The position numbers were made by a program, and so were the translations under genes. A stretch of DNA of 64,000 nt, from the NCBI GenBank assembly GCA_947481635.1, contig CANKHJ010000003.1, positions 5,353 through 69,352 of the forward strand, written 5' to 3'. How positions within the stretch are numbered: the first letter of the stretch is position 1; every line of letters begins with the position of its first letter. This DNA is from Bradyrhizobiaceae bacterium. GTDB taxonomy: Bacteria > Pseudomonadota > Alphaproteobacteria > Rhizobiales > Xanthobacteraceae. Below, one piece after another: positions 9,259 through 24,612 of this stretch. The notes under the pieces are model-generated. The model saw only the letters and a list, made by a program, of their open reading frames with translations, was not told where the DNA came from and did not search any database.

Positions 9259-9300
9259 CCGCGTATCGCTTCCGCTGACATCATCCGAGACGACAACCAA

Positions 9301-9330: not shown

Positions 9331-9367
9331 CAAGACGGCGGATCACCGTGGAAGCCAAAACCGCGGC

Positions 9368-9453: not shown

Positions 9454-9484
9454 GCGCAGGGAATCCAGCTGTCGTCTCAGCGGA

Positions 9485-10258
9485 TCACAGAAACCGCGTC
9501 GGCCACATCAGCGTGCGCCACATGTGGGCGGAGGAGCTGTTGTCGAAGCCGAGGCCTTCCTTGGGCTGTTTCCAGTTGCGGCCGATGATGTCGACGAAGT
9601 CTTCGAGCTCGCACTTCACGTTCGGATCGAACGAATAGACATCGTTCACCGTGATCATGCGCGAGGTCATGTACCACTTGTGGTTCCGCGCGCGCTCATA
9701 CTCGGCGTAGATATACGGCTCGGGCTTATAATGCTCGCCGAACAGCTTGATGTATTGATCCGGGTAGGTGTAGCCGACCGACTCGTCGGGGAAAAAGCGC
9801 AGCGACTGGTGCATGCGGATTGCCCAGCTCACCTCTTCATCGACATAAGGTGCAATGAGCTGCTCGCCCCAATAGCCATGATCCGGGCGGATGAAGCCGA
9901 TCACGCCGATGTCGTGCAGCAGGCAGGCCATCACGACCTTTTCCGGCAGGCCTTTGATACGCGCGAGACGCGCGCTCTGCAGCAGATGCTGCGCGGTGAA
10001 GAAGCGCATCGTGAAGAAGTCGATCAGCGTCGGCTTCTCCGGCATCTTCTTCAGCTTCGGGTCGTCGCGCATCACCATGAACTTGCCGGGATTTTCGGCG
10101 CGCAACGCGTTGCCGTTCTCCATCTGCACATGGCCTTCCTTGGCCAGGCGGAACAGAACGGAATTGGTGACGATCGTGTTGAGCTGGTCGGTCAGATCGT
10201 GCTCGTGCTGATCGGCGAGATCAGACAGACTGACGGCTGCGGCTGATTGCGGTCCCAT
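9485..10258 (-). CDS. HD-domain metal-dependent phosphohydrolase-like protein
   Basis: VMACLLHDIGVIGF carries an HD motif. GGAGA lies 5 nt upstream of the ATG. Confidence 0.65.
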   Translation of the reverse strand: MGPQSAAAVSLSDLADQHEHDLTDQLNTIVTNSVLFRLAKEGHVQMENGNALRAENPGKFMVMRDDPKLKKMPEKPTLIDFFTMRFFTAQHLLQSARLARIKGLPEKVVMACLLHDIGVIGFIRPDHGYWGEQLIAPYVDEEVSWAIRMHQSLRFFPDESVGYTYPDQYIKLFGEHYKPEPYIYAEYERARNHKWYMTSRMITVNDVYSFDPNVKCELEDFVDIIGRNWKQPKEGLGFDNSSSAHMWRTLMWPTRFL

Positions 10259-10325
10259 CGGCGTCTCCGGCCTTTCCTAAGGCTATGCGTGATTTTGGCC
10301 CAACCTATTGAAAGGTGGGCGGTTG

Positions 10326-11873: not shown

Positions 11874-11894
11874 CGCACTCTAGCCTTTTGCTTG

Positions 11895-11941
11895 AGCATG
11901 ATCTTTTCGGAAAACCGGGGTCCACTTTTCCGGATCATGCT
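11895..11941. repeat. Nested-palindrome REP-like element between the ABC ATPase and permease genes
   Basis: Outer inverted repeat AGCATGATC / GATCATGCT encloses an inner CGGAAAA / TTTTCCG repeat around the core AACCGGGGTCCACTT. A related core occurs at 48.87 kb. Confidence 0.6.
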
Positions 11942-12714
11942 TACGCCGCCTGCGCCCGCTCGGCGATGAGCGCGAGGAAGGTATCCTCCAGGCTGCGCGC
12001 CTTGTCGGCATCGCGGCCGTTGGTCTTTTCCGAAAGCTCGTGCAGTTCCTGCAAGGTGCCTTCCGCGATCAACTTGCCGCGCGCGATCACCCCTATGCGG
12101 TCGGCCATCCGTTCGGCGACTTCGAGGATATGTGTGGTCATGATCACGGTGCCGCCGGCGGTGACGCGCTCGCGCAGCACGTCCTTCACCTGGCGCGCCG
12201 AAGCGGCATCGAGGCCGGTGAGCGGTTCGTCGAGAATGATCAGGCGCGGGTCATGCACCAGCGCGCCGGCCAATGCCACTTTCTGACGCATGCCGCGCGA
12301 AAATCCCTCGCAGCGCTCATGCGCATGCGGCCCGAGCCCAAGCAGCGCGATCAGATCGCGGGCGCGGGTCTCGGCGCCCCGCGCATCGATGCCCCAGAGG
12401 CCGGCGACGAATTCGAGATATTCGTAAGGCGTGAGCTTGTCATAGATCATCGGCTCGTCGGACACCCAGGCGAGGATGCGCTTGGCCTCGACCGGATCGC
12501 GCCGCGCGTCGATCCCGAACACCGAGATCGCGCCGGCGTCAGGCTGCATCAGCCCGGCGACCATGCGCAAAGTGGTGGTCTTGCCGGCCCCGTTGGGGCC
12601 AAGCAGCGAATAGAATTCGCCGGCGCGTACCGTGAGGTCGAGTTGGTCGACCGCGGGGCGGTCGAACCGCTTCACCAGGCCGCGGATTTCGAGGGCAGGA
12701 AGGGCTGGGGTCAT
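11941..12714 (-). CDS. ABC transporter ATP-binding protein
   Basis: Walker A GPNGAGKTT, signature SRGMRQKV and Walker B LIILDEP are present. Confidence 0.9.
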   Translation of the reverse strand: MTPALPALEIRGLVKRFDRPAVDQLDLTVRAGEFYSLLGPNGAGKTTTLRMVAGLMQPDAGAISVFGIDARRDPVEAKRILAWVSDEPMIYDKLTPYEYLEFVAGLWGIDARGAETRARDLIALLGLGPHAHERCEGFSRGMRQKVALAGALVHDPRLIILDEPLTGLDAASARQVKDVLRERVTAGGTVIMTTHILEVAERMADRIGVIARGKLIAEGTLQELHELSEKTNGRDADKARSLEDTFLALIAERAQAA

Positions 12715-12884
12715 GATGCCCTCAGGCTAGCCGAGAGAAGTTTCGCCGCGGTGAATGCCGCCACAAAAACCGGCGATGCCCCGGAAATCGCACGGAAATT
12801 TGAGTTGATTCACTGTGCCTTGCTCCGCCCACGGCTTGTTTTGGGAATCGCACTGGCCGATCCTTGCCATTTGGGGGAGTTCCA

Positions 12885-13085
12885 ATGAGCGGCGTCGCCG
12901 TCTTTCTCTGGCTGGTCGGGGCCTACGTGGCGATCGGCATCGCCATGGCGCTGGCCTTCGTGACGATCGGGCTGGGGCGCGTCATGCCGCATACGCGCGT
13001 GACGACCGGCGCGCGCATCCTGTTCGCGCCCGGCGCCGCCGCGCTGTGGCCGCTGATCCTGTCGCGCTGGCTGGCCGCGCGATGA
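12885..13085 (+). CDS. Small two-helix membrane protein (66 aa), unknown function
   Basis: GGGGGAG lies 6 nt upstream of the ATG at 12885. There are two hydrophobic stretches. The stop overlaps the next ATG (ATGA). Confidence 0.4.
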   Translation: MSGVAVFLWLVGAYVAIGIAMALAFVTIGLGRVMPHTRVTTGARILFAPGAAALWPLILSRWLAAR

Positions 13086-13180
13086 GGCGTTCGCTGCGCA
13101 GGACGCACCGCAGGCTCTGGCCGCTGCTGCTGATCGTGGTGGGGCTCGGCTTCGCGCTCGCTTTGGGCCTGCGCTCGTGA
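13082..13180 (+). CDS. Mini membrane peptide (32 aa), tentative
   Basis: A basic N-terminus is followed by one TM helix (LWPLLLIVVGLGFALALGL). It overlaps upstream by ATGA and downstream by GTGA. Confidence 0.25.
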   Translation: MRRSLRRTHRRLWPLLLIVVGLGFALALGLRS

Positions 13181-14217
13181 GCGCCGGCTTCCAGGCGGTG
13201 CAATGGGGCCGCGCGAAATATATCTACGACGCAATTCTGCTCGGCTGCGTCACGGCCTATGTCGGCGGCTTTGCCCTGATCGCGTGGCGGGTCACGCCGC
13301 CGAAAAATCTTGCCGATCAGATCGACATCTTCATCCGTGCTTTTGGAAGCTGCGCCTTCCTGATGCTGACGGCGATCCTGTGCATCGGGCCGCTGGCGCG
13401 GCTCGACCAGCGCTGCCTCAAGGCATTGTATAACCGCCGTCATTTCGGCGTGCTGACATTCCTGGTCGCGGCGACGCATGCCTGGCTGATGATCGAGTGG
13501 TACCTCGCGCAGGGCAACCTGCAAAACCTCGGCAACGAACTCATCACCTGGGCGGATTACGCCAAGTTCATCGGCTTCCCGTTCAAGACGCTCGGCATGG
13601 CCGCGCTACTGGTGCTGTTCCTGATGGCGGCGACCAGCCATGACTTCTGGCTCGCCTTCCTCGGTCCGAAGGTGTGGAAGGCGCTGCATATGGCGCTTTA
13701 TGTTGCCTATGGGCTGGTGGTGATGCATGTCGCGCTCGGCATCATGCAATATGAGCGCACGCCGTTGGTCCCGATCATGCTGATCGGGGGCTTCGGCGCC
13801 GTCGTGACGCTGCACCTGATCGCGGCCTTTCGCGAACACAAAGCCGACCGCGGCAAACCCGCGCGCGACGGCTGGCTCGCGGTCGGGCCGCCGCTCTCGA
13901 TTCCCGACAAATGCGCGCGCATCGTAGTGGCCGACGGCGGCGAGCGCATCGCGGTGTTCCGCGACGGCACGCAGGTCGGTGCGCTGACCAACCTCTGCGC
14001 GCATCAGAATGGACCGCTCGGCGAAGGACGCATCATCGACGGCTGTGTCACCTGCCCGTGGCATGGGTGGCAATACCGGCTGGCCGACGGACGCGCGCCG
14101 GAACCCTTCACCGAAAAGGTCGCGACGCATCGCGTTCGGCTGGTCGACGGCATCATCGAGGTCGACGTCAATCCATTGCCGCCGGGCACGCCAGCGGCCA
14201 TTCAGGTTCCGCTCTAG
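13177..14217 (+). CDS. Ferric-reductase-type (heme-b) six-TM domain fused to a C-terminal Rieske [2Fe-2S] domain
   Basis: There are six hydrophobic helices. His pairs occur in helix 3 (RHFGVLTFLVAATH) and helix 5 (LHMALYVAYGLVVMH). The C-terminus carries CAH-x16-CPWH. Confidence 0.75.
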   Translation: MSAGFQAVQWGRAKYIYDAILLGCVTAYVGGFALIAWRVTPPKNLADQIDIFIRAFGSCAFLMLTAILCIGPLARLDQRCLKALYNRRHFGVLTFLVAATHAWLMIEWYLAQGNLQNLGNELITWADYAKFIGFPFKTLGMAALLVLFLMAATSHDFWLAFLGPKVWKALHMALYVAYGLVVMHVALGIMQYERTPLVPIMLIGGFGAVVTLHLIAAFREHKADRGKPARDGWLAVGPPLSIPDKCARIVVADGGERIAVFRDGTQVGALTNLCAHQNGPLGEGRIIDGCVTCPWHGWQYRLADGRAPEPFTEKVATHRVRLVDGIIEVDVNPLPPGTPAAIQVPL

Positions 14218-14230
14218 TCAAGGACACGGC

Positions 14231-15337
14231 ATGGCAGGCGAAGATTGGATCGATCTCGGCGCGAGTGCGGAGCTGTCGACGATGCCGCTGCGGCCGGTGA
14301 CGGCGCGTAGCACCAGCATCGCGCTCTCGTATCGCGACGGTGAATTCGGGGCGGTGTCGAATACCTGCAATCACGTTGGCGGTCCGCTCGGCGGCGGCAC
14401 GCTCGACGGCGACTACATCGTCTGCCCGTGGCATGCGTGGAAATTCCATCGCCGCAGCGGCGCGGGCGAGCCGGGCTTCGAGGATGACTGCGTGCCGTCC
14501 TATCCGGTCAAGGTCGAGAACGGCCGCGTGCTGGTCAATCTCGCCGCCGCGAGCAAACGCAACAGGAAGCCGCATGCGGCGCATCCGCTGACGCGCGATG
14601 TCACGCGCGCGCCGGGAAAGCTCCGGCTCGCGGGCATCTCGACCACCGTGATGGATCCCGGCCTGCCACGCTTCTCGGGATCGGACCATCTGCTCGACGC
14701 CGCGCTGACGGAAGCTCGCACGCTCGGAGCGGAGACACAGATCATCCGCCTCAACGACCTGAAATTCCGTGCCTGCGAGGGCTATTATTCCAAGGGCGCA
14801 CAGGCCTGCACCTGGCCCTGCTCGATCACCCAGATGGATTCGACCGACCAGATGGACCAGGTCTACGAGGCGCTGGTGCATTGGGCCGACGCGATCATCG
14901 TGGCGTCGCCGATCCGCTGGGGCGCTGCGTCATCGCTCTATTTCAAGATGGCCGAGCGGCTCAATTGCGTGCAGAATGCGATCACGACGCGTAACCGTGT
15001 CCTGATCCGCAACAAGGTGGCCGGCTTCATCATTGTCGGCGGTCAGGACAATATCCAGGGCGTCGCCGGACAAATGCTCGGCTTCTTCGCCGAGCTCGGC
15101 TTCATCTTTCCGCAATTTCCCTATATCGCCCATTCGCGCGGCTGGTCGCGCGAGGATATGGAACGGAATATCGAAGTGGTGCGGACATCGAAAGAACTGG
15201 CCGAAGGCGCTTCGATGCTGGCGAAACGCTGCCTCGATCTCGCCGCACACCTGATCGCGCAGGACGAGGCGCCCGCCTCGATCGAACGCGGCGGTCGCAA
15301 AGCCCATCTGATCGATACCGATGCATCCATTGGGTGA
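14231..15337 (+). CDS. Rieske [2Fe-2S] domain fused to an NADPH-dependent FMN-reductase/flavodoxin-like domain
   Basis: The N-terminus carries CNH-x16-CPWH. The C-terminal part (LRLAGISTT...ADAIIVASPIRWG...GFIIVGGQDN) is typical of Isf/FMN-reductase-like flavoproteins. The ATG at 14231 is in frame with the 14009..15337 ORF. Confidence 0.75.
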   Translation: MAGEDWIDLGASAELSTMPLRPVTARSTSIALSYRDGEFGAVSNTCNHVGGPLGGGTLDGDYIVCPWHAWKFHRRSGAGEPGFEDDCVPSYPVKVENGRVLVNLAAASKRNRKPHAAHPLTRDVTRAPGKLRLAGISTTVMDPGLPRFSGSDHLLDAALTEARTLGAETQIIRLNDLKFRACEGYYSKGAQACTWPCSITQMDSTDQMDQVYEALVHWADAIIVASPIRWGAASSLYFKMAERLNCVQNAITTRNRVLIRNKVAGFIIVGGQDNIQGVAGQMLGFFAELGFIFPQFPYIAHSRGWSREDMERNIEVVRTSKELAEGASMLAKRCLDLAAHLIAQDEAPASIERGGRKAHLIDTDASIG

Positions 15338-16115
15338 CGTGACCGACGATTTATGGACCGAGGTTCCGGCACTGTTGCGTACCGGGACAGCGCCGCTGCC
15401 CGCGCCGTGGGAAGGCCGGTTCGGCCCGCTGCGCGCGGGCGTGACCGACGATCTCGTCGTGGTCGCGCAAATGGGCCAATCGCTTGACGGCCGCGTCGCG
15501 ACGCGCAGCGGGCATTCGCACTATATCAACGGACCGAGTGGTCTGGCGCATCTGCACCGGCTGCGCGCGGTGACCGACGCGGTGGTGGTCGGCGTCGGCA
15601 CCGCCATCGCCGACGATCCGCAGCTCACCGTGCGCCACTGCGCCGGCCCCTGCCCGGCCCGCGTGGTGATCGATCCGCGCGGCCGGCTGCCGGATACGGC
15701 GCGGCTGCTCGCAGATGACGGCGCGCGCCGCATCGTCGTGACCGGCAACAATCTCGGGCGGACCTGGCCGGCTGGCGTCGAGGCGATCGCGCTGGCGCGC
15801 GAGAACGGCTCGATCGAGCCGGCCGAAATTCTCGCCGCGCTGGCGCAACGCGGCCTCACGCGCATCCTGATCGAAGGCGGCGGCAACACCGTCGCGCGCT
15901 TTCTGGTGGCGCGATGCCTCGACCGGCTGCATATCGTGGTCGCGCCGCTGATCTTCGGCAGCGGACGGCCGAGCCTCTCGCTGGCGCCGATCGACAATGT
16001 CGACGAAGCGCTGCGGCCGCCGATGGGAATCCACGACCTCGGCGGCGAAGTGCTGTTCGACTGCGACTTGGCGGCCTACCGGCGCCCGATCGGGCGCGCA
16101 AAAAAATCGATGTGA
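15321..16115 (+). CDS. RibD C-terminal-domain (DHFR-like fold) reductase
   Basis: Motifs MGQSLDGRVAT, HRLRAVTDAVVVGVGTAIADDPQLTVR and ILIEGGGNT are present. The gene overlaps the upstream gene by 17 nt. Confidence 0.75.
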   Translation: MHPLGDVTDDLWTEVPALLRTGTAPLPAPWEGRFGPLRAGVTDDLVVVAQMGQSLDGRVATRSGHSHYINGPSGLAHLHRLRAVTDAVVVGVGTAIADDPQLTVRHCAGPCPARVVIDPRGRLPDTARLLADDGARRIVVTGNNLGRTWPAGVEAIALARENGSIEPAEILAALAQRGLTRILIEGGGNTVARFLVARCLDRLHIVVAPLIFGSGRPSLSLAPIDNVDEALRPPMGIHDLGGEVLFDCDLAAYRRPIGRAKKSM

Positions 16116-16879
16116 CCGACGCGCAGCTCGCTTGATCCCGCGCTGATCAATTCGCGGCGGCGCGTGAACCAGCCGGCGACAATGGCAAGCGATGTATCCA
16201 TGCTGCGCGCGATACCGGCATAGCCGTTCAACAATTCAAGTTGGATGGCCTTGTCCGAACGATCGAGCACCCAATCGCTCTCTTTGAGATCGACCTTGTA
16301 TCCGACCCGGCGGAAACGCCGCACCGCCGTCATGGCGGCTTCGGGTCCAAGCGCTGCGCCGAAGCCTTTCTCGCTACGCTGATGCCGGTTCACCGCGGAG
16401 ACGACAGTGGCATCCCCATCCTCCTCCGGCGTGAAAATGATGCGGCCGTCATAGTTCAGCGTTGCGTAGAACGGGAGATGCCGCGCGGCCAATTCGGTCA
16501 CGAGACGATCGAGCCATTCCTGCGACACGAGATCGAGCAATGCCGAGGTGGTGACGAGATCGACCGCCCCATCCAGCGCCGCCTCGAGATCATGCGCAAG
16601 ATCCACCGGCGTGGTCGCGACAGCCACGCGGGATGAAGGCGGCGCGGACACGCGCGCCAGCAGGCTGAGGTCGTTGTCGACCAGCCGCCAGCGCTGATGC
16701 ATCGGCAGGTGGGGGGACAGGGCGCGCATCGCGGCGCCGGTCCCGCTGGCGAGATCAACGACTGAAATCGAATGACGTTCAGAGGCCCAGGCTTTGACCG
16801 CCTCCAGCAGCAGGGGGTTGCGCGCACGCTCATCATACGGTTCGCGCAGCGCCAGCCAGTCTGACGAAAAGCCGCTCAA
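16076..16879 (-). CDS. Class I SAM-dependent methyltransferase
   Basis: VVDLASGTGAA is a motif-I-like sequence. The gene overlaps the upstream GT4 gene by 4 nt. Confidence 0.7.
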   Translation of the reverse strand: MSGFSSDWLALREPYDERARNPLLLEAVKAWASERHSISVVDLASGTGAAMRALSPHLPMHQRWRLVDNDLSLLARVSAPPSSRVAVATTPVDLAHDLEAALDGAVDLVTTSALLDLVSQEWLDRLVTELAARHLPFYATLNYDGRIIFTPEEDGDATVVSAVNRHQRSEKGFGAALGPEAAMTAVRRFRRVGYKVDLKESDWVLDRSDKAIQLELLNGYAGIARSMDTSLAIVAGWFTRRRELISAGSSELRVGHIDFFARPIGRR

Positions 16880-17928
16880 ATCACCGCCTCGATCGCGCGC
16901 GCGACGCGCGCGGCGGCGTCGCTCCAGGTCGGGAAATTTTGCGCGGCCTTACGCGCCGCAGCGGAAAACCTCCGTCGCTCGTCAGGGCTTGCGATCAGGC
17001 GGCGCAACGCCGCGGCCAGTGCCGGAACGTCGCCAGGGGGGACCAGAAGGCCGGCGCCGTGCGGCACCGCCTCAGGAATAGCGCCCCCGGTGGTGCCGAT
17101 CACCGGCAGGCCATGCGCCAGCGCTTCGGTATAGGCCATACCATAGCCTTCGTAATGCGAGGCCAGCACGAACAGATCCGCGCCATCGTAAAGCTCGGCG
17201 AGACGTTCATGCGAGACACCGCCGGCGAGAACAACGCGGTCGCCCAATCCAAAATGGGCGATGTCGGCCTTGAGCTGACGCAGCATCTCGGCACTGCGGT
17301 CGGGATCCCCGGCGATGATGAGGTTCCAAGGCAGGTCGGTCAGCGTCGCCAGCGCCGCGACCAGCAGATCATGCCCCTTGCGCGGCACGATGGCGCCGAC
17401 GCTGAGCAGCGATACGCTATCCGCGTGGCTGCCGCGCGCGGCCTGGAAACGGTCGGTGCCAGGCAGCGCAACGGTGATGCGCCCGCGCGGCACGCCGTAA
17501 CTCTCGACCAGGATGCGCTCGGTGGTCACGCTGGTCGCGATCACGGCGCGCGCACAGGCAAGCGCGTCGCGCTCGCTATTAAGCAAACGCGCGGCATCGG
17601 CCCTGCTCCATCCCGTCTCCAATGCGAGCGGATGATGCACCAGCGCGATCAGCGGATGCGAAAGCTGCAAGTCTGCGACAATCTCCGGAATGAGGCCGTA
17701 GACCAGACCATCGATCAGCAGCGGGGTGCCTGAAGGCACCGATGCGAGTTGCTGCCGTGTGGTCGCGAGCGTCGCCGTGTCGGGCCGCGGATAACCGCTG
17801 CCGACATCGAGGAAATCCGCGTCCCAGCCGATACCTCGCAGCTCCTCGATCACGCGACGGTCATAAGCATAGCCGCCAGTCAGTTGCGCGTAGTCGCCGG
17901 AAATGCCGAACGCAACCCGCTTCACCAC
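16876..17928 (-). CDS. GT4-family (group 1) glycosyltransferase
   Basis: The C-terminal half contains PRKGHDLL and LFVLASHYEGYGMAYTEALAHGLPVIGT (an EX7E-type motif). Confidence 0.8.
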   Translation of the reverse strand: MVKRVAFGISGDYAQLTGGYAYDRRVIEELRGIGWDADFLDVGSGYPRPDTATLATTRQQLASVPSGTPLLIDGLVYGLIPEIVADLQLSHPLIALVHHPLALETGWSRADAARLLNSERDALACARAVIATSVTTERILVESYGVPRGRITVALPGTDRFQAARGSHADSVSLLSVGAIVPRKGHDLLVAALATLTDLPWNLIIAGDPDRSAEMLRQLKADIAHFGLGDRVVLAGGVSHERLAELYDGADLFVLASHYEGYGMAYTEALAHGLPVIGTTGGAIPEAVPHGAGLLVPPGDVPALAAALRRLIASPDERRRFSAAARKAAQNFPTWSDAAARVARAIEAVI

Positions 17929-18323
17929 AAGGCGGCCTCATACCACGCGCGCGCCACATGGGATTCCGAGATCGTGATGCGGATGGCGGCGAGTTCGCGG
18001 CCCTCACGGCCCAAGGCGCCGGAACGTGCGGCGGCCGCCAGATGATCGAAGATATGCTTGGTCAGGAACTCGGTAGTGGTGTTCTTGCCTTCCAGGCCGG
18101 GCGCGGTATCGAGATTGCGATAATTCAGCGGCGCCAGCGTTTCCTTGAGCACCTCATGCGCGCGGCCGATGTCGATAACGATGCCGTTGGCATCGAGTGC
18201 CTCGGACATGAATGCGGCATCGATGACGAAGGTCGCGCCATGCAGCGCCTGCGCCGGGCCGAACACCGCCCCGCGAAATGAATGGGCGATCATGATGTGG
18301 TCACGGACTTCGACGGCAAACAC
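17922..18323 (-). CDS. 6-pyruvoyl-tetrahydropterin synthase / QueD-family protein, atypical
   Basis: FAVEVRDHIMIAHSF...LHGATFVID has the family architecture. A GTG start at 18323 has GAGG 8 nt upstream. The longer 166-aa ORF is rejected. Confidence 0.65.
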   Translation of the reverse strand: MFAVEVRDHIMIAHSFRGAVFGPAQALHGATFVIDAAFMSEALDANGIVIDIGRAHEVLKETLAPLNYRNLDTAPGLEGKNTTTEFLTKHIFDHLAAAARSGALGREGRELAAIRITISESHVARAWYEAALW

Positions 18324-18348
18324 GGAAAAGACCTCGGAGTTTAAGTGG

Positions 18349-19326
18349 CTAATAATCGATGCGCTGGCACAAAACGCCGCTGCCAGGCGCAAGGATGTGC
18401 GGCAGGCGCACCGGCAGGTCAACGAAATTCACCGCCGGCGCGATCAGGCTTTCGAGAACCGGATCGGCCAACAGCGCGAGCGCGGCTGCGAGGCGGCGGC
18501 GATGCGACCAGCGCGCGCGATGCGATGGCGCGACCTGCCCGACCTGGCTCGACATGAGCTTCAGGCGGCGGCTGTGATATGCGCCACCGAGCGGCAGCGT
18601 CACGTGATCGGCGCCATACCAGCTGATATCGAGGATCGTTGCCTCGTCGCCCGCGAGCGTCAGCGCGGTGGCCAGCCCCTTGCCGCTGCCGCTCGCATGG
18701 ACCACCAGATCGCAATCCCCCGGCGCATCTTCCGGAAGGGCGAAGCCGACCCCAAGCGTGGTTGCCAGCGCGGCGCGCGCGGGGTTGACGTCGATCAGCG
18801 TGACCCGCGCACCGGGCAGCTTTCCGCATAGCCAGGCGACCAGTGCCCCGACCACGCCGGCCCCGATGACGGCAATGTGATCGGCCGGCCCGGGCGCGGC
18901 ATCCCACACCGCATTCAGCGCCGTCTCCATGTTGGCCGCTAGAATGGCGCGGGCGGGCGGCACGTTGTCGGGGAGCGGCACCGCCGCGTCCGAGGGAATG
19001 ACGAAGCGGGTCTGGTGTGGGTGGAGCACAAAGACCTTGCGGCCGATCAATGCGGACGGGCCGGCCTCGACCACCCCGACGGTGGAATAGCCGTATTTCA
19101 CCGGGAACGGAAAGCTGCCGCCCATGTACGGAGCACGCATTCGCTGGTGTTCGCTGGGCGGCACCCGCGCCGCGAAAATCAGCGCCTCGGTGCCGCGGCT
19201 GACCGCGCTATGCAGCGCCGCCACGCGGACATCGCCGGCGCCGACCGGCGCCACCGCCTCCTCCCGCAACTCGACGCGGCCGGGGGCCGAGTACCATAAT
19301 GCGCGCGCCGTATCGTTTGCTGCCAC
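18349..19326 (-). CDS. Zn-binding/medium-chain dehydrogenase-reductase (MDR) family protein
   Basis: GxGxxG is present (VIGAGVVGALVAW) with MDR-like layout. I chose the GTG start at 19326. The Arg/Pro-rich N-terminal extension of the 488-aa ORF is rejected. Confidence 0.7.
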   Translation of the reverse strand: MAANDTARALWYSAPGRVELREEAVAPVGAGDVRVAALHSAVSRGTEALIFAARVPPSEHQRMRAPYMGGSFPFPVKYGYSTVGVVEAGPSALIGRKVFVLHPHQTRFVIPSDAAVPLPDNVPPARAILAANMETALNAVWDAAPGPADHIAVIGAGVVGALVAWLCGKLPGARVTLIDVNPARAALATTLGVGFALPEDAPGDCDLVVHASGSGKGLATALTLAGDEATILDISWYGADHVTLPLGGAYHSRRLKLMSSQVGQVAPSHRARWSHRRRLAAALALLADPVLESLIAPAVNFVDLPVRLPHILAPGSGVLCQRIDY

Positions 19327-19400
19327 ACTCGCCCCATCATGGTTTTGCGGTTGCCGACCGGCTATATCCTGCCCGAAGAATACGGAATTCGGAACCGAAG

Positions 19401-21923
19401 ATGCTGGAGCGCACACAGGCGCATATGTCAGTGGGCGCAACGCGGTCACTTGCCGCCCGGCGGGCGCTGTTTGCCGCGCTGGTGGCCGCGACCTGCGTGG
19501 CGGTGCTGGCGCTGTTCGCCCTGGTCTTGTCCCCCGGCGGAATCGGCCTCGTCGACGGCGTGATGATCGCGCTGCTGGCGATCCCGCTGCCATGGTCGGC
19601 AATCGGCTTCTGGAACGCGACCATCGGCCTGATCCTGATGCGCTTCGCCCGCGATCCGGTCGGCGCTGTATGCCCGCCCGCAATCCGCGTGCATGACGAC
19701 GCGCCGGTGCTGGCCTCGACCGCAATCCTGATGTGCATCCGCAACGAGGATCCGGATGTCGTGTTGCGCAACCTCGACGTGATGCTGACGCAACTCGCGG
19801 CGACCGGCGAGGCACGGCGGTTTCATCTCTATGTGCTGAGCGATACCAACCTGCCGGCTATCGCGGCGCAAGAGGATGCTCGGTTCGGCGCCTTGACCGC
19901 ACAATGGCTCGAGCGCGTCGCGATCACCTACCGGCGACGCGACAGCAACGAGGGGTTCAAAGCCGGCAACATCAAGGATTTCTGCGAGCGCTGGGGCGCG
20001 CAGCACGACTTCGCGATCACGCTCGACGCCGACAGCGTGATGCCGGCCGCCGCGATGCTGCGCCTGGTGCGCATGATGCAGAACGAGCCGCGCATCGGCA
20101 TCCTGCAAGGCCTGGTGATCGGGATGCCCTCGACCAGCGCCTTTGCACGGCTGTTCCAGTTCGGCATGCGGCTCGGCATGCGCTCCTACACGCTCGGAAG
20201 CGCGTGGTGGCAGGGCGATTGCGGGCCCTATTGGGGGCACAATGCGATCCTGCGGCTTGCGCCGTTCATTGCCCATTGCCAGATCCCTGACACGCCGGCG
20301 CGCGGACCGCTCGGCGGTCCGATCCTGAGCCACGACCAGATCGAAGCGGTGCTGATGCGCCGCGCCGGATATGAAGTGCGGGCAGTGCCGCGCGAGGACC
20401 TCGGCTGGGAGGAGAACCCGCCAACGCTGCTCGAATTCCTGCGCCGCGACCTGCGCTGGTGTCACGGCAACATGCAATATTGGCGCTTCCTGCGGATGCC
20501 GGGCCTGTTGCCGACCAGCCGAGTGCAACTCGTGCTGGCGATGCTGATGTTTGTCGGATCGCCGGTCTCGGCAGTGATGGTGCTGCTGATCTGCGCGAGG
20601 CTGCTATTGTCCAACGAGCCGTTCCTGCGCGTCGACGCGGCGATCGGGTTATTCGCCGTGATGCTGACGATGGCTTTCGCGCCCAAGATCGCAACCGTAA
20701 TCGACGTGCTGATGCGCGCCGACCTGCGCAAGGGCTATGGCGGCGCACCGCGTTTCATCGCGAGTGTGGCCGCAGAGACGGTATTCGCGACGTTGCTTGC
20801 GCCGGTGATGTGGTTCGCGCACTCGATCTATCTCGGCGGGCTCCTGCTCGGGCGCACCATTGGCTGGAACGCGCAGACGCGTAGCGACCATGCGGTGCCG
20901 TTCTCGCTCGCTGTACAGACTTTGTGGCCGCACACATTATATGGCGGCCTGGTCCTGGCGATGATCGCCGCAAGCGCACCGGGCGCCCTGCCCTACGCGC
21001 TCTATTTTGTCGCTGGACTGGCCTTGGCCATTCCGTTTGCGATGCTGACGGCGTCACCCGCCCTCGGACGCCTTCTTGTCCGTACCGGCCTTGGACGGCT
21101 GCCGGAGGAAACCGACCCGCCGCCCGCGCTGCGGGCGCTGCGGCTGCCCGCCATCGAAGCAGCGTCATCGTCGGCGAGACTGCGGGACAGGATCCGGAGC
21201 GCGCGCGGCGTGATCCGTTCGCTGCGCATCTATTACGGCCATCGCGCGCGACGTGAGGCGATGGACCGCCTCTACGCGCAATTCATCAAACCGGGCGATC
21301 TGGCCTTCGACATCGGCGCCCATGTCGGCGACCGCATTGGGTGTTTCCGGCGGCTCGGAGCCAAGGTGGTCGCTGTCGAGCCCCAGCCGCCGCTGATACG
21401 GACGCTACGCCTGCTCTATGGCCGCGATGCCGCGGTCGCGATCGAGCCAGCAGCAGTCGGGGCCGTGGCTGGCACGACGCTGCTCAGGCTCAATGTCGAC
21501 AATCCGACGATCTCGACCGCGTCCGAGGACTTCATTGCCGCGGCGAATGATGGAGCGGGCTGGCAGGGCCAGACCTGGGATCGCACGATCGAGGTCGCGA
21601 CCACTACGCTCGATGACCTGATCGCACGTCACGGCATGCCGGCCTTCATCAAGATCGACGTCGAGGGTTTCGAACTGCAGGCGCTGACGGGGCTGAATCA
21701 TTCCGTCGCTGCGCTGTCATTCGAGTTCACCACGATCCAACGCGACGTCGCGCTGGCCTGCGTCGACCGTTGCGTTGCCTTGGGTTACCGTTCATTCGGC
21801 GCGGCGCTCGGCGAAAGCCAGGTGTTGATCGAACGGCGCCGCAGCGCCGAAGAGATCAAAAGCTGGCTAACGGGCCTGCCCGAAGACGCCAATTCCGGGG
21901 ACATTTATGCGACCCTGGCGTGA
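19401..21923 (+). CDS. opgH: OpgH/MdoH-like GT2 glucan glucosyltransferase fused to a C-terminal FkbM-family methyltransferase domain
   Basis: The GT2 part carries LSDTN, DADS and RRDLRWCHGNMQYW plus multiple TM helices. The C-terminal roughly 200 aa carry FDIGAHVGD and IKIDVEGFELQAL (FkbM). It is one continuous frame. Confidence 0.75.
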   Translation: MLERTQAHMSVGATRSLAARRALFAALVAATCVAVLALFALVLSPGGIGLVDGVMIALLAIPLPWSAIGFWNATIGLILMRFARDPVGAVCPPAIRVHDDAPVLASTAILMCIRNEDPDVVLRNLDVMLTQLAATGEARRFHLYVLSDTNLPAIAAQEDARFGALTAQWLERVAITYRRRDSNEGFKAGNIKDFCERWGAQHDFAITLDADSVMPAAAMLRLVRMMQNEPRIGILQGLVIGMPSTSAFARLFQFGMRLGMRSYTLGSAWWQGDCGPYWGHNAILRLAPFIAHCQIPDTPARGPLGGPILSHDQIEAVLMRRAGYEVRAVPREDLGWEENPPTLLEFLRRDLRWCHGNMQYWRFLRMPGLLPTSRVQLVLAMLMFVGSPVSAVMVLLICARLLLSNEPFLRVDAAIGLFAVMLTMAFAPKIATVIDVLMRADLRKGYGGAPRFIASVAAETVFATLLAPVMWFAHSIYLGGLLLGRTIGWNAQTRSDHAVPFSLAVQTLWPHTLYGGLVLAMIAASAPGALPYALYFVAGLALAIPFAMLTASPALGRLLVRTGLGRLPEETDPPPALRALRLPAIEAASSSARLRDRIRSARGVIRSLRIYYGHRARREAMDRLYAQFIKPGDLAFDIGAHVGDRIGCFRRLGAKVVAVEPQPPLIRTLRLLYGRDAAVAIEPAAVGAVAGTTLLRLNVDNPTISTASEDFIAAANDGAGWQGQTWDRTIEVATTTLDDLIARHGMPAFIKIDVEGFELQALTGLNHSVAALSFEFTTIQRDVALACVDRCVALGYRSFGAALGESQVLIERRRSAEEIKSWLTGLPEDANSGDIYATLA

Positions 21924-22839
21924 CGCGCTCGGCGCCGTAGCGATCTCGCTCCTGTTCGCTGGGACCTCGCATGGCGAACCGCTTGCGGTGCGGGTGATCA
22001 ATGCCAGCAAGCCGACGCAATGCGCCGAGACCGACAACGTCTATCTCAAGCTGACATCGCGCGCGACCCGGCGCTTCACCATCGAGGCGCGGCATCCCGG
22101 CTACATCACGGATATCGTCAAAGACAGCATGGATCCGGACTTCGGCCGCTGCGACATGTCGCGCGATCCTTCTTTCAAGTTCGAGCCGCGCAAGGTGACG
22201 TTGTACCAGGATCAGGACTGGATGCTGGTCGGCTACACTTTCCCGACCAACTGGCGGCCAACCAAAGTCCCGGTGCGCGTCGGCGACCGTACCGAGGACG
22301 GGCTGCACCTGGTGCAGGTGTGGAAACGCGTCGGCGCGGATTTTTATGAAGCGCTGGTGGTGTATCCGTCCGACGGCTATTGGCGCGCGAGGCCGCTGGC
22401 GCCGCCAAACTTGAAGGAGGCCGGTTATGGTTCGTCATTCCTGATCGGCCCGATCGAATTCGGTGGACGACCGCTGGTCGCGTTCCGCGAGATCGCGTTC
22501 GATCCGGCCGCGCGCACGATCCGCGTCGCTTTCGCACGCGGCGGCACGGCCACACTGCGCATCGACGCGCTCACCAGCGAACGACAGACGCTGGACGTTC
22601 GGTTCGACCGGGCAATCGCCGGATCGTTCGCCGCGTTGCGCTCGATGTTCGTCAGCGAGACCAATGCCGACGTGGCGCAAATCGCGTGGCACCGCAAAGG
22701 CACCACGCCGCAGCCTAAAATGCCGATCATGGACTTCAAGCGCGCGCGTGCGGCCGAGGTTTGGACCGGGCGCACCACGCCATCGCTCCACAACATGAGC
22801 GCGCCGGACACCGTGTTCAAGGATTTCGCGACCCGCTAG
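21907..22839 (+). CDS. Exported protein of unknown function (310 aa)
   Basis: The signal peptide is MRPWRDALGAVAISLLFAGTSHG. The gene overlaps opgH-fkbM by 17 nt. I recognise no motif. Confidence 0.6.
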   Translation: MRPWRDALGAVAISLLFAGTSHGEPLAVRVINASKPTQCAETDNVYLKLTSRATRRFTIEARHPGYITDIVKDSMDPDFGRCDMSRDPSFKFEPRKVTLYQDQDWMLVGYTFPTNWRPTKVPVRVGDRTEDGLHLVQVWKRVGADFYEALVVYPSDGYWRARPLAPPNLKEAGYGSSFLIGPIEFGGRPLVAFREIAFDPAARTIRVAFARGGTATLRIDALTSERQTLDVRFDRAIAGSFAALRSMFVSETNADVAQIAWHRKGTTPQPKMPIMDFKRARAAEVWTGRTTPSLHNMSAPDTVFKDFATR

Positions 22840-22845
22840 GGCGGG

Positions 22846-24612
22846 CTATTCCGCCGCCGCATCCGCGGTCATGAATTGCGCACGCGCCAGTGCGGCGAAG
22901 GCGCCCCCACGCGCGAATAATTCATCGAAGCTGCCGCTCTCGATGATCCGGCCATTCTCGAAGACCAGAATGCGCGTCGCCTTGCGCACCGTTGCGAGGC
23001 GATGCGCGATCACGAAGGTGGTGCGGTTTTTCATCACCTCGTCGAGCGCCGCCAACACCTTGGCCTCAGTCGTTGCATCCAGCGCGCTGGTGGCCTCGTC
23101 GAGAATCAGGATCGGCGGATCCTTGAGCAAGGCTCGCGCGATCGACAAGCGCTGACGCTCGCCACCGGACAGCATCCGGCCGCGCTCGCCGACGCGCGAC
23201 TGGAAGCCGTCCGGCGCGCGCTCGATGAAATCCAGCGCCTGGGCGCGTTGCGCGGCGGAACGCATCTCCTCCTCGGTCGCGTCGGGCTTTCCGGCATGCA
23301 GATTGTCCGCGATCGAGCGGTTGAACAGCAGCGTCTCCTGGAACACGACGCCGATATTGCGCCGCAGCGCGCCGAGCTTGAGCTCGGGCAGGTCGACGCC
23401 GTCGATCTTGATCGAACCGGATTGCGGATCGAAGGCGCGGTGCAGCAGCGCGAGCGAGGTGGATTTGCCGGCGCCGGTCGGGCCGACCAGCGCGATCATT
23501 TCGCCAGGCTTTGCGGTGAAGTTCAGTTCCGCCACCGCCGGCATGCGTCCGTCATAGGAGAACGACACGTTCGAAAACGCGACCTCGCCGACCGCACGGC
23601 CGGGATCGATCGAATCCGGCCGGTCGCGCAGGCTCGGCCTAGTGTCGAGCACCTCGAAGAATTCGCGCAGCCGCGGCGCGTCCCAAACCATCCGGTTGAC
23701 GAAGCCGATGGTGCTTTCCATGCGGCCGATCACCATGACCGCGAAGTTCATGAAGGTGACCATCTCGCCGATGGTCGCGAGGCCTTGTAGCGAGAGCCAG
23801 GTGCCGATGATGATGATGCAGAGAATGGTGATCGTGGTTCCGGCGCGGGTGAGCACGGTCGCGAGCGCCCACCACGACAGCACCGGGATCTGCGCCGCCA
23901 GCAACCGCTCGGCGACGCTGCGCAGCCCCGAGACCTCGGCTTCGATGCGCGCGTAGCTTTGCACCAGCGCGATATTGCCGAGCGTGTCGGACGCGCGTTC
24001 GGCAAGATCGCTGTAATGGCGCTCGACCGCGCTCTGCATCTTGTCGGTCTTGCGCACCAGCAGGATCGCCAGCAGCGCAAAGCCTGCGCACAGCACGACC
24101 AGCAGCAATGCGAGCCGCCAGTTGAGAAACAGCGACAGCGGCAGCAGCACCAGCAGCGAGATGAACGCGGACATATGCTCGCGGAAAAAGCCGAGCCACA
24201 TCGCCCAGAGCGAATCCGTGCCTTGCAGCATCACCTTCATCAGGCGGCCGGAATGCGTGCCCGAGTGATAGGCCAGCGGAAGCTGCAGCACATGCTCGAA
24301 ATAATCGGTCAGCACCGCCTGGCGGCGGCGATGCGCCAGCCGGTCGGCATGCAGCGCCACCAGCGTCCCGCACAGGATTGAGAACAGGCCGAAGCCGGCC
24401 CAGGCGGCCAGCAGCACAATCAGCGTCGTCAGGACCGCGTTGTTCTTATCCGCCTGGATCATGGTCAGCGCGTCGATGATGCGGCCGAACAGGATCGGTT
24501 CGGCGAATTGCGCGGACGCCAGCGCCACGTTGGCGAGCGCGAGCGTCCAGCCGAGCCGCCGTTCCGACCCGAGCTCGCGCAGCACCCGTTGATACAGACG
24601 AACGAAATCCAT
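22846..24612 (-). CDS. ndvA: NdvA/ChvA-like glucan exporter (fused ABC permease-ATPase, 588 aa)
   Basis: The N-terminal [13 protein letters not shown] box matches what I remember of NdvA/ChvA. Walker [10 protein letters not shown], signature LSGGERQR and Walker [10 protein letters not shown] are present. Confidence 0.7.

Follow-up and report, generated by a model that had tools for sequence, protein, structure and literature searches.

Gene and Domain Organization

The 64-kb stretch of DNA analyzed here (the window) carries a gene in which an OpgH-type synthase and an FkbM-class methyltransferase are joined. The gene, its domains, and its neighbors are as follows.

15321..16115, + strand: RibD_C-type pyrimidine reductase (PF01872)
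16076..16879, − strand: second, class-I-like methyltransferase (weak PF13649)
16876..17928, − strand: GT4 (GT-B) glycosyltransferase (PF00534, PF13692)
17922..18323, − strand: T-fold protein of the PTPS family, SCO6650 homologue (PF01242)
18349..19326, − strand: ADH-like dehydrogenase (MDR superfamily, BchC-like; weak PF00107 and TIGR01202)
19327..19400, no strand: 74-bp divergent intergenic region separating the divergent ADH-like and opgH-fkbM genes, presumably a promoter region that both share
19401..21923, + strand: opgH-fkbM fusion gene, 840 aa plus stop, one frame throughout
19443..19646, + strand: N-terminal TM helices TM1-TM2 (aa 15-82; AF2 helices 15-42 and 50-82)
19719..20495, + strand: cytoplasmic GT-A (GT2) catalytic domain (aa 107-365; PF13632, PF00535, invariant residues, Foldseek)
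20511..21050, + strand: C-terminal TM bundle of the OpgH module (aa 371-550; AF2 helices 371-403, 411-438, 449-482, 501-525, and 527-550)
21147..21275, + strand: Arg-rich helical linker (aa 583-625; AF2 helices 583-612 and 615-625)
21300..21914, + strand: FkbM-class Rossmann methyltransferase core (aa 634-838; PF05050, TIGR01444, invariant motifs)
21907..22839, + strand: sec310, secreted 310-aa protein (signal peptide, two invariant Cys)
22846..24612, − strand: NdvA/ChvA-type glucan ABC exporter (NCBIfam), convergent with sec310

The fusion gene sits in ORF 19299..21923 (+), where a start at ATG 19401, backed by the "MLER..." opening in the alignment consensus of the homologues, gives 840 aa, as do independent gene calls. 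The initial annotation, which had placed both parts in a single 840-aa frame, is hence correct on this point. The OpgH/MdoH GT2 module, of the short type, covers aa 12-592 and satisfies the NCBIfam MdoH equivalogs NF003958 (517 bits, cutoff 419) and NF003962 (459 bits, cutoff 328), with PF13632 at aa 206-398 (E 3e-16) and PF00535 also matched in the GT-A domain. The methyltransferase occupies aa ~596-840, with PF05050 at aa 637-774 (E 3e-13, 50.9 bits against a cutoff of 22.7) and TIGR01444 (fkbM_fam) at 80.4 bits against 37.7. The motifs quoted in the initial annotation are all present: TLDADSVM (aa 207-214) and RRDLRWCHGNMQYW (aa 348-361) in the GT2 half, FDIGAHVGD (aa 636-644) and IKIDVEGFELQAL (aa 750-762) in the FkbM half.

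In an alignment of 47 sequences, the GT2 residues D148, D209-x-D211, H311-D312, and R349-D350-x-R352-W353 are invariant, and so are SAM motif I (D637-x-G639-x-H641-V-G643), E660-P-Q-P, and K751-x-D753-x-E755-G-x-E758 of the methyltransferase half, which includes the SAM-binding residues whose presence the initial annotation had left to be checked. Judged from these motifs, each half appears capable of catalysis. The first 590 aa make up an OpgH of the short type, predicted to synthesize beta-glucan from UDP-glucose; this module has a BcsA/Cgs-like fold and lacks an OpgG partner. The one gene encodes a genuine bifunctional inner-membrane enzyme, with the predicted activities of an OpgH and of an intact FkbM-class SAM methyltransferase. 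Public annotation calls the fused proteins just "MdoH" or "membrane glycosyltransferase", which hides the second enzyme.

Between positions 20900 and 21500 the gene frame is free of stops, whereas both other frames contain them, and the GC content at codon positions 1/2/3 is alike in the two halves (0.67/0.49/0.83 and 0.67/0.49/0.78), so that the absence of a stop or frame change between the parts, noted initially, holds. The exact 840-aa protein occurs on six contigs, and the three listed come from three different, independent ENA metagenome assemblies. After clustering at 90% identity, both Pfam domains were found in all but one (P0118) of the best 119 non-self clusters, which are 51-65% identical to the window protein and mostly full length (830-925 aa), a few being truncated. 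Over 115 protein clusters have this architecture, as do about 60 genomes at the species level, most of them from Hyphomicrobiales; identities are 42-67%, and OpgH and FkbM stand in line at 60 distinct loci. A sequencing or assembly error that merged two adjacent genes, for which no supporting point was found, is refuted with near certainty by the identical protein from three independent assemblies, by the cluster survey and the in-frame junction common to about 60 loci, and by a junction open in the gene frame only with continuous codon-position GC. The identical protein in three assemblies, the more than 115 clusters, the invariant motifs, the confident structure model, and the fold matches described below show that the fusion is real and under selection.

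Structure Model and Comparison with Known Synthases

The AF2 model of the fusion protein has a pLDDT of 89 and a pTM of 0.76. The N-terminal hydrophobic span covers aa 16-72, and four Arg in aa 1-21 indicate a cytoplasmic N-terminus. The GT-A domain ends in an RRDLRW interface helix and lies under the TM bundle in the manner of a membrane-embedded synthase, as seen in the AF2 model and by Foldseek. The C-terminal bundle aligns to residues 508-700 of E. coli OpgH, its TM count being ambiguous from sequence alone. The region of aa 552-625, which includes the linker, carries 16 Lys/Arg, and aa 634-838 form a core of alternating strands and helices. The methyltransferase begins directly after a conserved "LPEE..PP" motif, in place of the C-terminal tail of E. 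coli OpgH; because of this position and the Lys/Arg-rich linker, it probably faces the cytoplasm.

Foldseek matches the model to BcsA (E 1e-14), Cgs, and hyaluronan synthase. The best superposition is on Cgs (8rf9), with a TMq of 0.47 and an rmsd of 6.5 Å over 649 columns, while that on BcsA is poorer (TMq 0.37-0.38, rmsd 11-12 Å). BcsA is likewise a membrane GT2 synthase with an extra C-terminal cytoplasmic domain, PilZ, which is however a cyclic-di-GMP-binding regulatory domain, whereas the FkbM domain is a predicted enzyme. Cgs is a GT84 enzyme that primes itself at a Tyr residue; it lacks an export channel and passes its cytoplasmic glucan to an NdvA-type exporter. As in the cyclic glucan systems (NdvA/NdvB, ChvA/ChvB, Cgt/Cgs), an NdvA/ChvA equivalog adjoins the fusion gene (NF010178, 886 bits against a cutoff of 733; TIGR01192, 592 against 585). 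On the other hand, the fusion protein has no Cgs-like cyclase or phosphorylase domain, and the giant cyclic glucan synthase (about 2,600-2,900 aa) of the NdvA/NdvB system is missing from the window, where the longest ORF is 874 aa and none of NdvB/Cgs size was found.

Compared with E. coli OpgH (MdoH), the protein is 33% identical over E. coli residues 190-728; the GT2 motifs are shared, and the TM helices and the GT domain follow one another in the same order. It lacks the N-terminal 136 aa and the periplasmic-loop insert (537-552) of the E. coli protein, and the FkbM methyltransferase takes the place of the C-terminal cytoplasmic extension. Also unlike the E. coli system, there is no opgG in the fusion operon or elsewhere in the window. 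The studied case of an OpgH working without OpgG is Caulobacter. This alphaproteobacterium, for which no other opg homologue is reported, has a short OpgH (CCNA_02097 of Caulobacter crescentus) that lacks both terminal extensions of the E. coli protein as well as its loop inserts, and the paper mentions no methyltransferase (PMC11389396). The short OpgH and the lack of OpgG are shared with the present locus, in which the C-terminal methyltransferase, a conserved divergent operon, and the downstream secreted protein are extra.

The FkbM Domain and Its Relatives

Characterized members of the FkbM family include FkbM itself, the 31-O-methyltransferase of FK506 biosynthesis, and NoeI. The domain of the fusion protein passes both family cutoffs and has the KIDVEG motif in common with the FkbM structure 2PY6; this is the closest structure to the subfamily profile, at just E 4e-4, and no characterized close relative was found. 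Free homologues of about 250 aa are 40-62% identical over the whole domain, and the linker is also their conserved N-terminal helix (RSLRIYYG), with G, S, and Y nearly invariant. The domain belongs to a separate subfamily that has an Arg-rich helix of its own at the N-terminus, and this subfamily occurs fused to two different integral-membrane enzymes.

In a neighbor-joining tree without support values, the OpgH-fused domains and their closest free relatives form one group, and the FkbM proteins of clusters with a CDP-alcohol phosphatidyltransferase (CDP-OH type) form its sister group, at 39-49% identity. Since the groups are this far apart, their acceptor specificity could differ. The sister group recurs in other phyla in equivalent clusters without OpgH, including actinobacterial-type loci, either free or fused to the CDP-alcohol phosphatidyltransferase. 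About 20 further free relatives (54-59% identical) lie in unrelated contexts, next to a dehydratase, a two-component system, UbiD, or a TRAP transporter.

A Conserved Locus with an SCO6650-Type Operon

The operon divergent from opgH-fkbM begins with the ADH-like gene, whose start is probably GTG 19326. Its second product, the T-fold protein, matches SCO6650 of the SCO6650-SCO6655 orphan cluster of Streptomyces coelicolor (PDB 3D7J) with E 2.5e-43 over the full length, and in the same alignment has HGA where E. coli QueD (PDB 4NTK) has HGH. Work from the Bandarian laboratory (2006-2008) reportedly found SCO6650 to lack PTPS activity and SCO6655 to be a GTP cyclohydrolase II paralogue making a formylated pyrimidine; the literature searched contained no report on what the cluster makes. 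A Streptomyces locus with a T-fold protein 98% identical to SCO6650 also has homologues of the ADH-like protein (53% identical to that of the window), the GT4, the second methyltransferase, and GTP cyclohydrolase II. The ADH-like, GT4, and second methyltransferase genes (16076-19326, −) keep the same order in that locus and in metagenome loci. The divergent membrane enzyme of the Streptomyces locus is a CDP-alcohol phosphatidyltransferase, a position held here by OpgH-FkbM. The RibD_C reductase of the cluster is present in the window (TIGR00227 and TIGR01508 match below their cutoffs), whereas GTP cyclohydrolase II and the creatininase-like gene are absent from its 64 kb.

This arrangement is not peculiar to the window. 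The ADH-like and SCO6650-like genes are divergently adjacent in 52 of the 54 fused loci with at least 0.8 kb of upstream sequence, a count that spans OpgH identities of 42-65%. Among all 60 fused loci, the ADH-like gene (always divergent) and the T-fold gene are each found in 52, the GT4 in 51, the second methyltransferase in 42, the reductase in 33, GTP cyclohydrolase II in 27, and the creatininase-like gene in 14. opgH-fkbM is the membrane-bound member of a conserved locus with the SCO6650-type operon. In 13 of the 60, a gene for an NdvA/ChvA homologue (at least 38% identical) is found within 10 kb, at varying positions, making the exporter a possible, variable associate of the cluster.

The start of sec310 overlaps the stop of the fusion gene by 17 nt. 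The protein has no Pfam or NCBIfam match, and its AF2 model (mostly beta, pLDDT 66) gave no fold match in the PDB. In 22 of the 60 fused loci, a homologue comes directly after the fusion gene. Within the set of cluster loci examined, sec310 occurs only beside group-A FkbM genes (the OpgH-fused ones and those of L062 and L074) and never in CDP-OH-type clusters.

In four actinobacterial-type loci (L136, L141, L142, and L144), the CDP-alcohol phosphatidyltransferase gene is divergent from an operon that starts with the ADH, T-fold, GT4, and (methyltransferase) genes and continues with a 405-aa protein, GTP cyclohydrolase II (not detected in L141), the reductase, and FkbM. The L091 operon ends in a fusion of the phosphatidyltransferase with FkbM, and a GT4 gene lies directly upstream of FkbM or of such a fusion in L076, L090, L091, L092, L112, and the P0152 contig. 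No homologue of the phosphatidyltransferase was detected in the window or in loci L004-L086, L076 excepted.

A tblastn search with E. coli OpgG found no OpgG/OpgD in the window or in any fused locus, and OpgG only in L116, L134, and L076: opgGH lies inside the cluster in L134 and beside it in L116, and in L076 the cluster borders on opgG. An OpgH that is not fused is encoded divergently from the CDP-alcohol phosphatidyltransferase in L119 and convergent with a free FkbM in Elioraea (L073). OPG genes and the SCO6650-type cluster associate repeatedly, in different arrangements.

Proposed Role of the Fusion Protein

We suggest that the glycoside of the cluster receives a methyl group from the FkbM domain at the cytoplasmic face of the membrane and that the OpgH module glucosylates and exports it, a reading to which we assign a probability of roughly 0.4. 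The literature searched held no paper describing such a scheme. With a GTP-derived precursor as its base, a glycoside would be assembled by the soluble cluster enzymes; the FkbM domain at the membrane would O-methylate it, the likeliest target being the sugar installed by the GT4; the OpgH module would take the glycoside as acceptor or primer, add beta-linked glucose from UDP-glucose, and deliver the product to the periplasm, where sec310 could act on it in place of OpgG. What the analysis shows is the architecture and its conservation, the intact catalytic motifs, the linkage to the cluster, and a probable placement of the methyltransferase in the cytoplasm; the identity of the methyl acceptor, the order of the steps, and the export route are inferred. 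Because the FkbM sister group recurs in equivalent clusters without OpgH, the beta-1,2-glucan backbone is the less likely methyl acceptor, and a glycoside or primer of the pathway the likelier one. In vitro, the OpgH system of E. coli reportedly needs a beta-glucoside primer (Weissborn and Kennedy, 1984), and we know of no identification of its natural primer. A comparable pairing is that of NodC with NodS/NoeI, where a membrane GT2 enzyme and methyltransferases act on a short exported oligosaccharide, although the Nod methyltransferases are separate proteins and the Nod factors are chitin oligomers exported by NodIJ.

Several observations count against this proposal. The window has neither GTP cyclohydrolase II nor the creatininase-like gene, the two FkbM groups could differ in acceptor specificity, about 20 free FkbM relatives stand in unrelated contexts, and the synteny may partly reflect shared ancestry within Hyphomicrobiales. 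In channel-forming GT2 synthases, moreover, the nascent chain is hardly accessible to another cytoplasmic domain.

A wider and more doubtful extension is that the locus is the alphaproteobacterial form of a cross-phylum pathway, in which a methylated glycoside made from a GTP-derived heterocycle is presented in the envelope. One form would have the glycoside linked to lipid by a CDP-alcohol phosphatidyltransferase, in some cases fused to FkbM, with canonical OpgGH encoded nearby in some Gram-negative lineages; here, OpgH-FkbM would methylate the glycoside and use it as primer or aglycone of an exported beta-glucan, followed by processing by sec310. If true, a natural primer or substituent of OpgH-type synthases would come to light, and the SCO6650-type cluster would have a role. 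Periplasmic glucans matter for osmoadaptation, envelope integrity, virulence, and symbiosis, and OpgH is the central enzyme of their synthesis. The fusion locus links their genes to a cluster found from Streptomyces to Proteobacteria, and the fused variant, present in about 60 species and tied to an apparent glycoside operon, is a testable candidate for what such synthases act on. Two protein families without known function, the secreted 310-aa protein and the 405-aa cluster protein, are flagged as well.

Alternative Explanations

We have also considered that OpgH makes a beta-1,2-glucan whose glucose residues are O-methylated by the FkbM domain, giving O-methylated periplasmic glucans, and that the neighboring operon is functionally unrelated. 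Methyl groups could be added to the non-reducing end ahead of every elongation step, or as a cap that ends the chain. Two intact catalytic modules are physically fused here and both probably face the cytoplasm; the FkbM family includes sugar O-methyltransferases such as NoeI, which methylates Nod-factor fucose at O-2, and some O-antigen chains are ended by a methyl cap (WbdD). In a possible variant, the synthase would work like the best-superposed, channel-less Cgs; a cytoplasmic glucan passed to an NdvA-type exporter, such as the one adjoining the gene here and found in 12 other loci, would be reachable by the methyltransferase. However, this reading does not explain why the gene is almost always paired with the SCO6650-type operon, over a range of 42-65% identity; FkbM homologues occur in OpgH-less equivalent clusters and in phosphatidyltransferase fusions, OpgG is absent, and no methylated OPG was found in the literature searched, which makes the explanation rather unlikely. 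The coupling of synthesis and methylation at the cytoplasmic membrane face, suggested in the initial annotation, remains plausible because competent-looking halves and a probably cytoplasmic methyltransferase are combined in one protein, while the genomic context (no OpgG/OpgD, the SCO6650-type operon, the OpgH-less clusters) speaks against tailoring of a classical OPG. The same annotation's remark that methylated OPGs are not a described feature of this group agrees with the literature searched, which yielded no report of O-methylated OPGs or of an OpgH-FkbM fusion.

It is unlikely, too, that the two activities are independent and joined only for co-expression and membrane localization, OpgH making an ordinary glucan and FkbM methylating a small molecule or lipid head group of the pathway, the product of which would later decorate the glucan from the periplasmic side or serve a separate envelope role. 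E. coli takes phosphoglycerol and phosphoethanolamine for glucan decoration from phospholipids, and the CDP-alcohol phosphatidyltransferase in the cluster of other lineages, with canonical opgGH in L134 and L116, points to a phospho- or lipid-linked product. Free FkbM relatives evidently function unfused, with the same Arg-rich N-terminal helix. Yet the Hyphomicrobiales loci and the whole window are without the phosphatidyltransferase, so that no lipid donor route is apparent in them; a periplasmic transferase of known type is missing too, and retention of the fusion in about 60 species suggests more than convenience.

Finally, it is very improbable that the FkbM domain is a non-catalytic, SAM-sensing or regulatory module of the synthase. 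Its C-terminal position beside the GT domain does recall PilZ, which stands at the C-terminus of BcsA, and E. coli OpgH has a non-catalytic cytoplasmic extension at the same place. Against this, the full set of methyltransferase motifs is invariant across the 47 sequences, including KxDxEGxE, the stretch that matches 2PY6, and the close free homologues are ordinary 250-aa enzymes.

Reading frame and authenticity of the fusion gene

The opgH-fkbM gene (19401-21923, + strand), which encodes an OpgH/MdoH-type GT2 glucan synthase fused to an FkbM methyltransferase, lies in an open reading frame of the forward strand spanning 19299-21923, and the ATG at 19401 gives a protein of 840 amino acids. Independent gene callers place the start at the same ATG, and the consensus of the homologues likewise opens with MLER. 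The initial annotation described one ORF with neither stop codon nor frame change at the junction, and this description holds: the gene frame is the only one free of stops there, and the codon-position GC is equal in both halves. All four sequence motifs that it quoted are found, and the domain survey that it called for gives two Pfam domains, each scoring above its cutoff: PF13632 (GT2, aa 206-398) and PF05050 (FkbM, aa 637-774). Nine NCBIfam MdoH models align over aa 12-592, two MdoH equivalogs being above cutoff (NF003958, 517 bits against 419; NF003962, 459 bits against 328), while TIGR01444 (fkbM_fam) passes with 80 bits against 37.7.

The identical 840-aa protein is carried by six contigs, and the three shown belong to three different ENA metagenome assemblies. 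In a search of 5.8 billion proteins, the best 119 non-self clusters are 51-65% identical to the fusion protein; both Pfam domains are present in all but one of them, and most are full length (830-925 aa). The source names of these homologues are 'MdoH' or 'membrane glycosyltransferase'. A frameshift or assembly artefact is ruled out by the identical protein in independent assemblies, the conserved architecture in many clusters and 60 loci, and the continuous frame, and we give an artefactual origin practically no weight. The comparisons argue firmly for a real and conserved protein that is predicted to be bifunctional. The gene is under selection.

An alignment of 47 fusion homologues shows D148, D209/D211, H311-D312, and R349, D350, R352, and W353 of the GT2 part to be invariant. 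The same is true of the SAM-binding residues of the C-terminal domain (D637, G639, H641, V642, G643, and E660-P-Q-P), whose absence would have counted against the initial annotation, and of K751, D753, E755, G756, and E758. We consider it very unlikely that the FkbM domain is a regulatory pseudo-enzyme.

Predicted structure and topology

The AlphaFold2 model of the fusion protein, calculated from the 47-sequence alignment, has a pLDDT of 89.4 and a pTM of 0.76.

Domains of the fusion protein in the AlphaFold2 model, in model order
N-terminal start: two TM helices
aa 107-365: GT-A domain
aa 371-550: TM helix bundle
aa 583-625: long Arg-rich helix
aa 634-838: Rossmann domain

In a Foldseek search of the PDB, the model resembles membrane GT2 synthases. 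Cgs is the best structural match, BcsA is found with E of about 1e-14, and hyaluronan, cellulose, and chitin synthases come next. Sequence search of the PDB gave no solved relative of the OpgH part, and the FkbM part and its subfamily profile gave only a short or weak match, 2PY6.

By tblastn, the fusion protein is 33% identical to E. coli OpgH across residues 190-728 of the latter; aligned pairwise, the two match from about E. coli residue 137 to 728. Compared with the E. coli protein, it lacks the N-terminal 136 aa and the periplasmic-loop insert, and straight after the common 'LPEE..PP' motif it continues into the FkbM domain, where E. coli OpgH has a C-terminal extension. Both termini of E. 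coli OpgH are reportedly cytoplasmic, a finding attributed to Debarbieux et al. 1997. Five hydrophobic helices follow the GT domain of the fusion protein, for which a TM count from sequence is ambiguous as to the side of the C-terminus, and the linker contains 16 Lys/Arg in 74 residues. On the basis of the E. coli OpgH alignment, the positive-inside rule, and the need for SAM, the methyltransferase domain should be cytoplasmic. The OpgH of Caulobacter, a bacterium without OpgG, has the same short format and likewise none of these extensions (PMC11389396). The fusion protein can be described with confidence as a short, OpgG-independent OpgH joined to an intact FkbM methyltransferase.

A conserved locus around the fusion

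Species-representative genomes were scanned with the FkbM-domain alignment, which yielded 80 loci, and the proteins of the window were then compared with these by tblastn. OpgH and FkbM are in line at 60 distinct loci. These carry the labels Xanthobacteraceae, Pseudolabrys, Bradyrhizobium, Tardiphaga, Bosea, Microvirga, Hyphomicrobium, Hyphomicrobiaceae, Beijerinckiaceae, and Rhabdaerophilum, and are also present in MAGs labelled Rhodospirillaceae, Geminicoccaceae, and Gammaproteobacteria. Cultured strains with the gene include Bradyrhizobium sp. McL0615 and LHD-71, Rhabdaerophilum calidifontis SYSU G02060, and the Rhizobiales isolates 2SD and AFS063105. The neighbours of opgH-fkbM in the window are the following.

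18349-19326, - strand: ADH-like gene of the divergent operon
21907-22839, + strand: sec310, encoding a secreted 310-aa protein
22846-24612, - strand: ABC transporter above the NdvA/ChvA equivalog cutoff

Divergently adjacent ADH-like and PTPS-family T-fold genes are present at 52 of the 54 fused loci whose upstream sequence is 0.8 kb or longer, and this linkage persists to 42% OpgH identity. The public assemblies call an ADH-like protein of 301 aa (start 19254); the GTG at 19326 (325 aa) is the likelier start, since homology reaches further upstream than 19254. With this GTG the divergent intergenic region would be 74 bp, and no RNA element or riboswitch in it matches Rfam at gathering score.

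Other cluster genes at the 60 fused loci (tblastn)
GT4: 51
Second methyltransferase: 42
RibD_C reductase: 33
GTP cyclohydrolase II: 27
sec310 homologue directly downstream: 22
Creatininase-like: 14
NdvA-like exporter within 10 kb, in varying positions: 13

Relation to the SCO6650-type cluster

The T-fold protein of the window matches PDB 3D7J (S. coelicolor SCO6650) with E 2.5e-43, and in the same alignment its HGA stands opposite the HGH of E. coli QueD. SCO6650 is said to have neither a zinc site nor PTPS activity, and its neighbour SCO6655 is reportedly a paralogue of GTP cyclohydrolase II and forms the formylated pyrimidine. In PDB sequence searches, the ADH-like protein retrieves only distant alcohol dehydrogenases and the second methyltransferase no relatives.

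The Streptomyces locus compared, with a T-fold protein 98% identical to SCO6650, starts with a divergent CDP-alcohol phosphatidyltransferase (CDP-OH transferase), followed by ADH-like, SCO6650 homologue, and GT4 genes, a homologue of the second methyltransferase that lacks a gene call, a 405-aa protein, and GTP cyclohydrolase II. From this gene order it follows that the position of OpgH-FkbM in Hyphomicrobiales is held there by another integral-membrane transferase. No CDP-OH transferase is found in the Hyphomicrobiales loci or in the window. The opgH-fkbM gene clearly belongs to a conserved SCO6650-type locus.

The cluster crosses phyla, being seen at L087 (Streptomyces, 7980-15608) and at L091, L110, L134, L136, L137, L141, L142, L144, L156, and L166 (L-numbers are loci from the genome and metagenome scans). 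Its genes encode CDP-OH transferase, ADH-like, SCO6650-type T-fold, GT4, methyltransferase, 405-aa, GTP cyclohydrolase II, pyrimidine reductase, creatininase-like, and FkbM proteins, the first and last of these being a single fused protein in some lineages. We found no report of its product in the literature.

The FkbM subfamily

With the 245-aa FkbM domain as query, an exhaustive HMMER search gives 611 representatives at E < 1e-30. The majority, about 250 aa long, are free proteins with 40-62% identity across the domain including the Arg-rich N-terminal helix, and several are proteins of 396-575 aa in which the domain stands behind a CDP-alcohol phosphatidyltransferase (PF01066). In a neighbor-joining tree without support values, one group (group A) unites the OpgH-fused domains with the free relatives closest to them, and the domains of the CDP-OH-type clusters are its sister. 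Free domains are scattered among the fused ones in this tree, so that a single origin of the fusion is unsupported and fusion or fission has probably occurred more than once.

Metagenomes were scanned with an alignment of the CDP-OH~FkbM fusions and the loci compared by tblastn; sister-group FkbM proves to be a recurrent member of the SCO6650-type cluster, whose genes are present in about half of the longer loci and absent from the rest.

Arrangement of the cluster at individual loci
L091: GTP cyclohydrolase II, reductase, ADH-like, T-fold, GT4, CDP-OH~FkbM fusion
L136, L141, L142, L144: CDP-OH transferase, divergent from ADH-like, T-fold, GT4, (methyltransferase), 405-aa protein, GTP cyclohydrolase II (not detected in L141 by tblastn), reductase, FkbM

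The proteins of the latter four loci are 55-79% identical to those of Streptomyces, and L110, L137, L156, and L166 have a similar cluster. GT4 lies directly upstream of FkbM or CDP-OH~FkbM at L076, L090, L091, L092, and L112 and on the contig of protein cluster P0152.

The free FkbM proteins nearest to the fused domain have unrelated, heterogeneous contexts, with IlvD/Edd, a two-component system, UbiD, glyoxalase, an SbmA/BacA-type ABC transporter, DctP, and a phage integrase as neighbours. At L083 (Micromonospora palythoicola, 9938-11728), a free FkbM that is 57% identical to the alphaproteobacterial fused domain lies beside a phage-type integrase; the actinobacterial host and the adjoining integrase suggest horizontal transfer.

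Periplasmic-glucan genes, sec310, and the exporter

A canonical opgGH operon was considered for the window and rejected, as no homologue of E. coli OpgG is found there or at any fused locus. OpgG homologues that are 34-40% identical to the E. coli protein occur at three CDP-OH-type loci.

L134, 4990-8152: opgG-opgH inside the cluster
L116, 16796-19794: opgG-opgH divergent from the CDP-OH transferase
L076, 608-1996: opgG divergent from the CDP-OH transferase

These are three unrelated contigs, and they represent a second, independent kind of association between the cluster and genes for osmoregulated periplasmic glucans (OPGs). L119 pairs an unfused OpgH (47% identical) with a divergently oriented CDP-OH transferase, after which come genes for FkbM, ADH-like, and T-fold proteins. 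In L074 (7505-10705) the genes for OpgH and FkbM are separate, with about 750 nt between them, and sec310 comes next; L073 (Elioraea, 10001-12443) has an unfused OpgH facing a free FkbM in convergent orientation. OPG genes and the cluster have thus come to lie side by side in several different arrangements. Two further variants are L062 (2373-4131), with a free FkbM followed by sec310 and no OpgH nearby, and L014 (6339-8008), in which OpgH is frameshifted.

The start of sec310 overlaps the opgH-fkbM stop by 17 nt. Its product contains two invariant Cys besides a signal peptide, falls in no Pfam or NCBIfam family, and has more than 2,500 homologues, called 'hypothetical' wherever the source names them. 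The AlphaFold2 model is mostly beta (pLDDT 66), and Foldseek finds no meaningful structural neighbour in the PDB (best E 3e-3, TM below 0.25). Among the cluster loci examined, sec310 occurs only beside group-A FkbM (OpgH-fused, L062, and L074) and never in CDP-OH-type clusters. The protein may be a stand-in for OpgG.

As to the NdvA-type exporter, an NdvB/Cgs cyclic-glucan partner was sought, and the 64-kb window contains no gene of Cgs size. Cgs has no export channel and relies on an NdvA-type exporter (PMC10901819). Since this channel-less, exporter-dependent enzyme is the best structural match of the fusion protein and an NdvA equivalog is adjacent, the glucan made by OpgH-FkbM may be released into the cytoplasm.

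Proposed role of the fusion

We tentatively propose, with a probability of about 0.4, that the methyl acceptor is the glycoside of the cluster. The FkbM domain would methylate this glycoside, most likely on the sugar added by GT4, the OpgH module would glucosylate or elongate it and export the product, and sec310 would process what is exported.

In the model of the initial annotation the FkbM domain would methylate the glucan backbone itself, which we regard as unlikely. About as unlikely is a joining of independent activities for co-localization, in which glucans or lipids would be decorated by the product of the cluster via another route.

In the literature we found no paper on an OpgH-methyltransferase fusion, an O-methylated OPG, or the wider cluster. 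Both families are known, and the architecture has passed unremarked in databases as MdoH. There is a realistic, though less than even, chance that the fusion is part of an undescribed envelope pathway.

Other features of the window

In the whole 64-kb window, no tRNA gene is present and nothing reaches an Rfam gathering score. The GC content is about 0.59-0.69 across it, with no compositional island at the locus. Immediately before the RibD_C gene lies a pair of overlapping ORFs (13177-15337, + strand) whose products are unusual Rieske fusions, one of a ferric-reductase-like TM domain with a Rieske domain and one of a Rieske domain with an NADPH-dependent FMN reductase; relatives have GTP cyclohydrolase II and a creatininase-like gene at this place.
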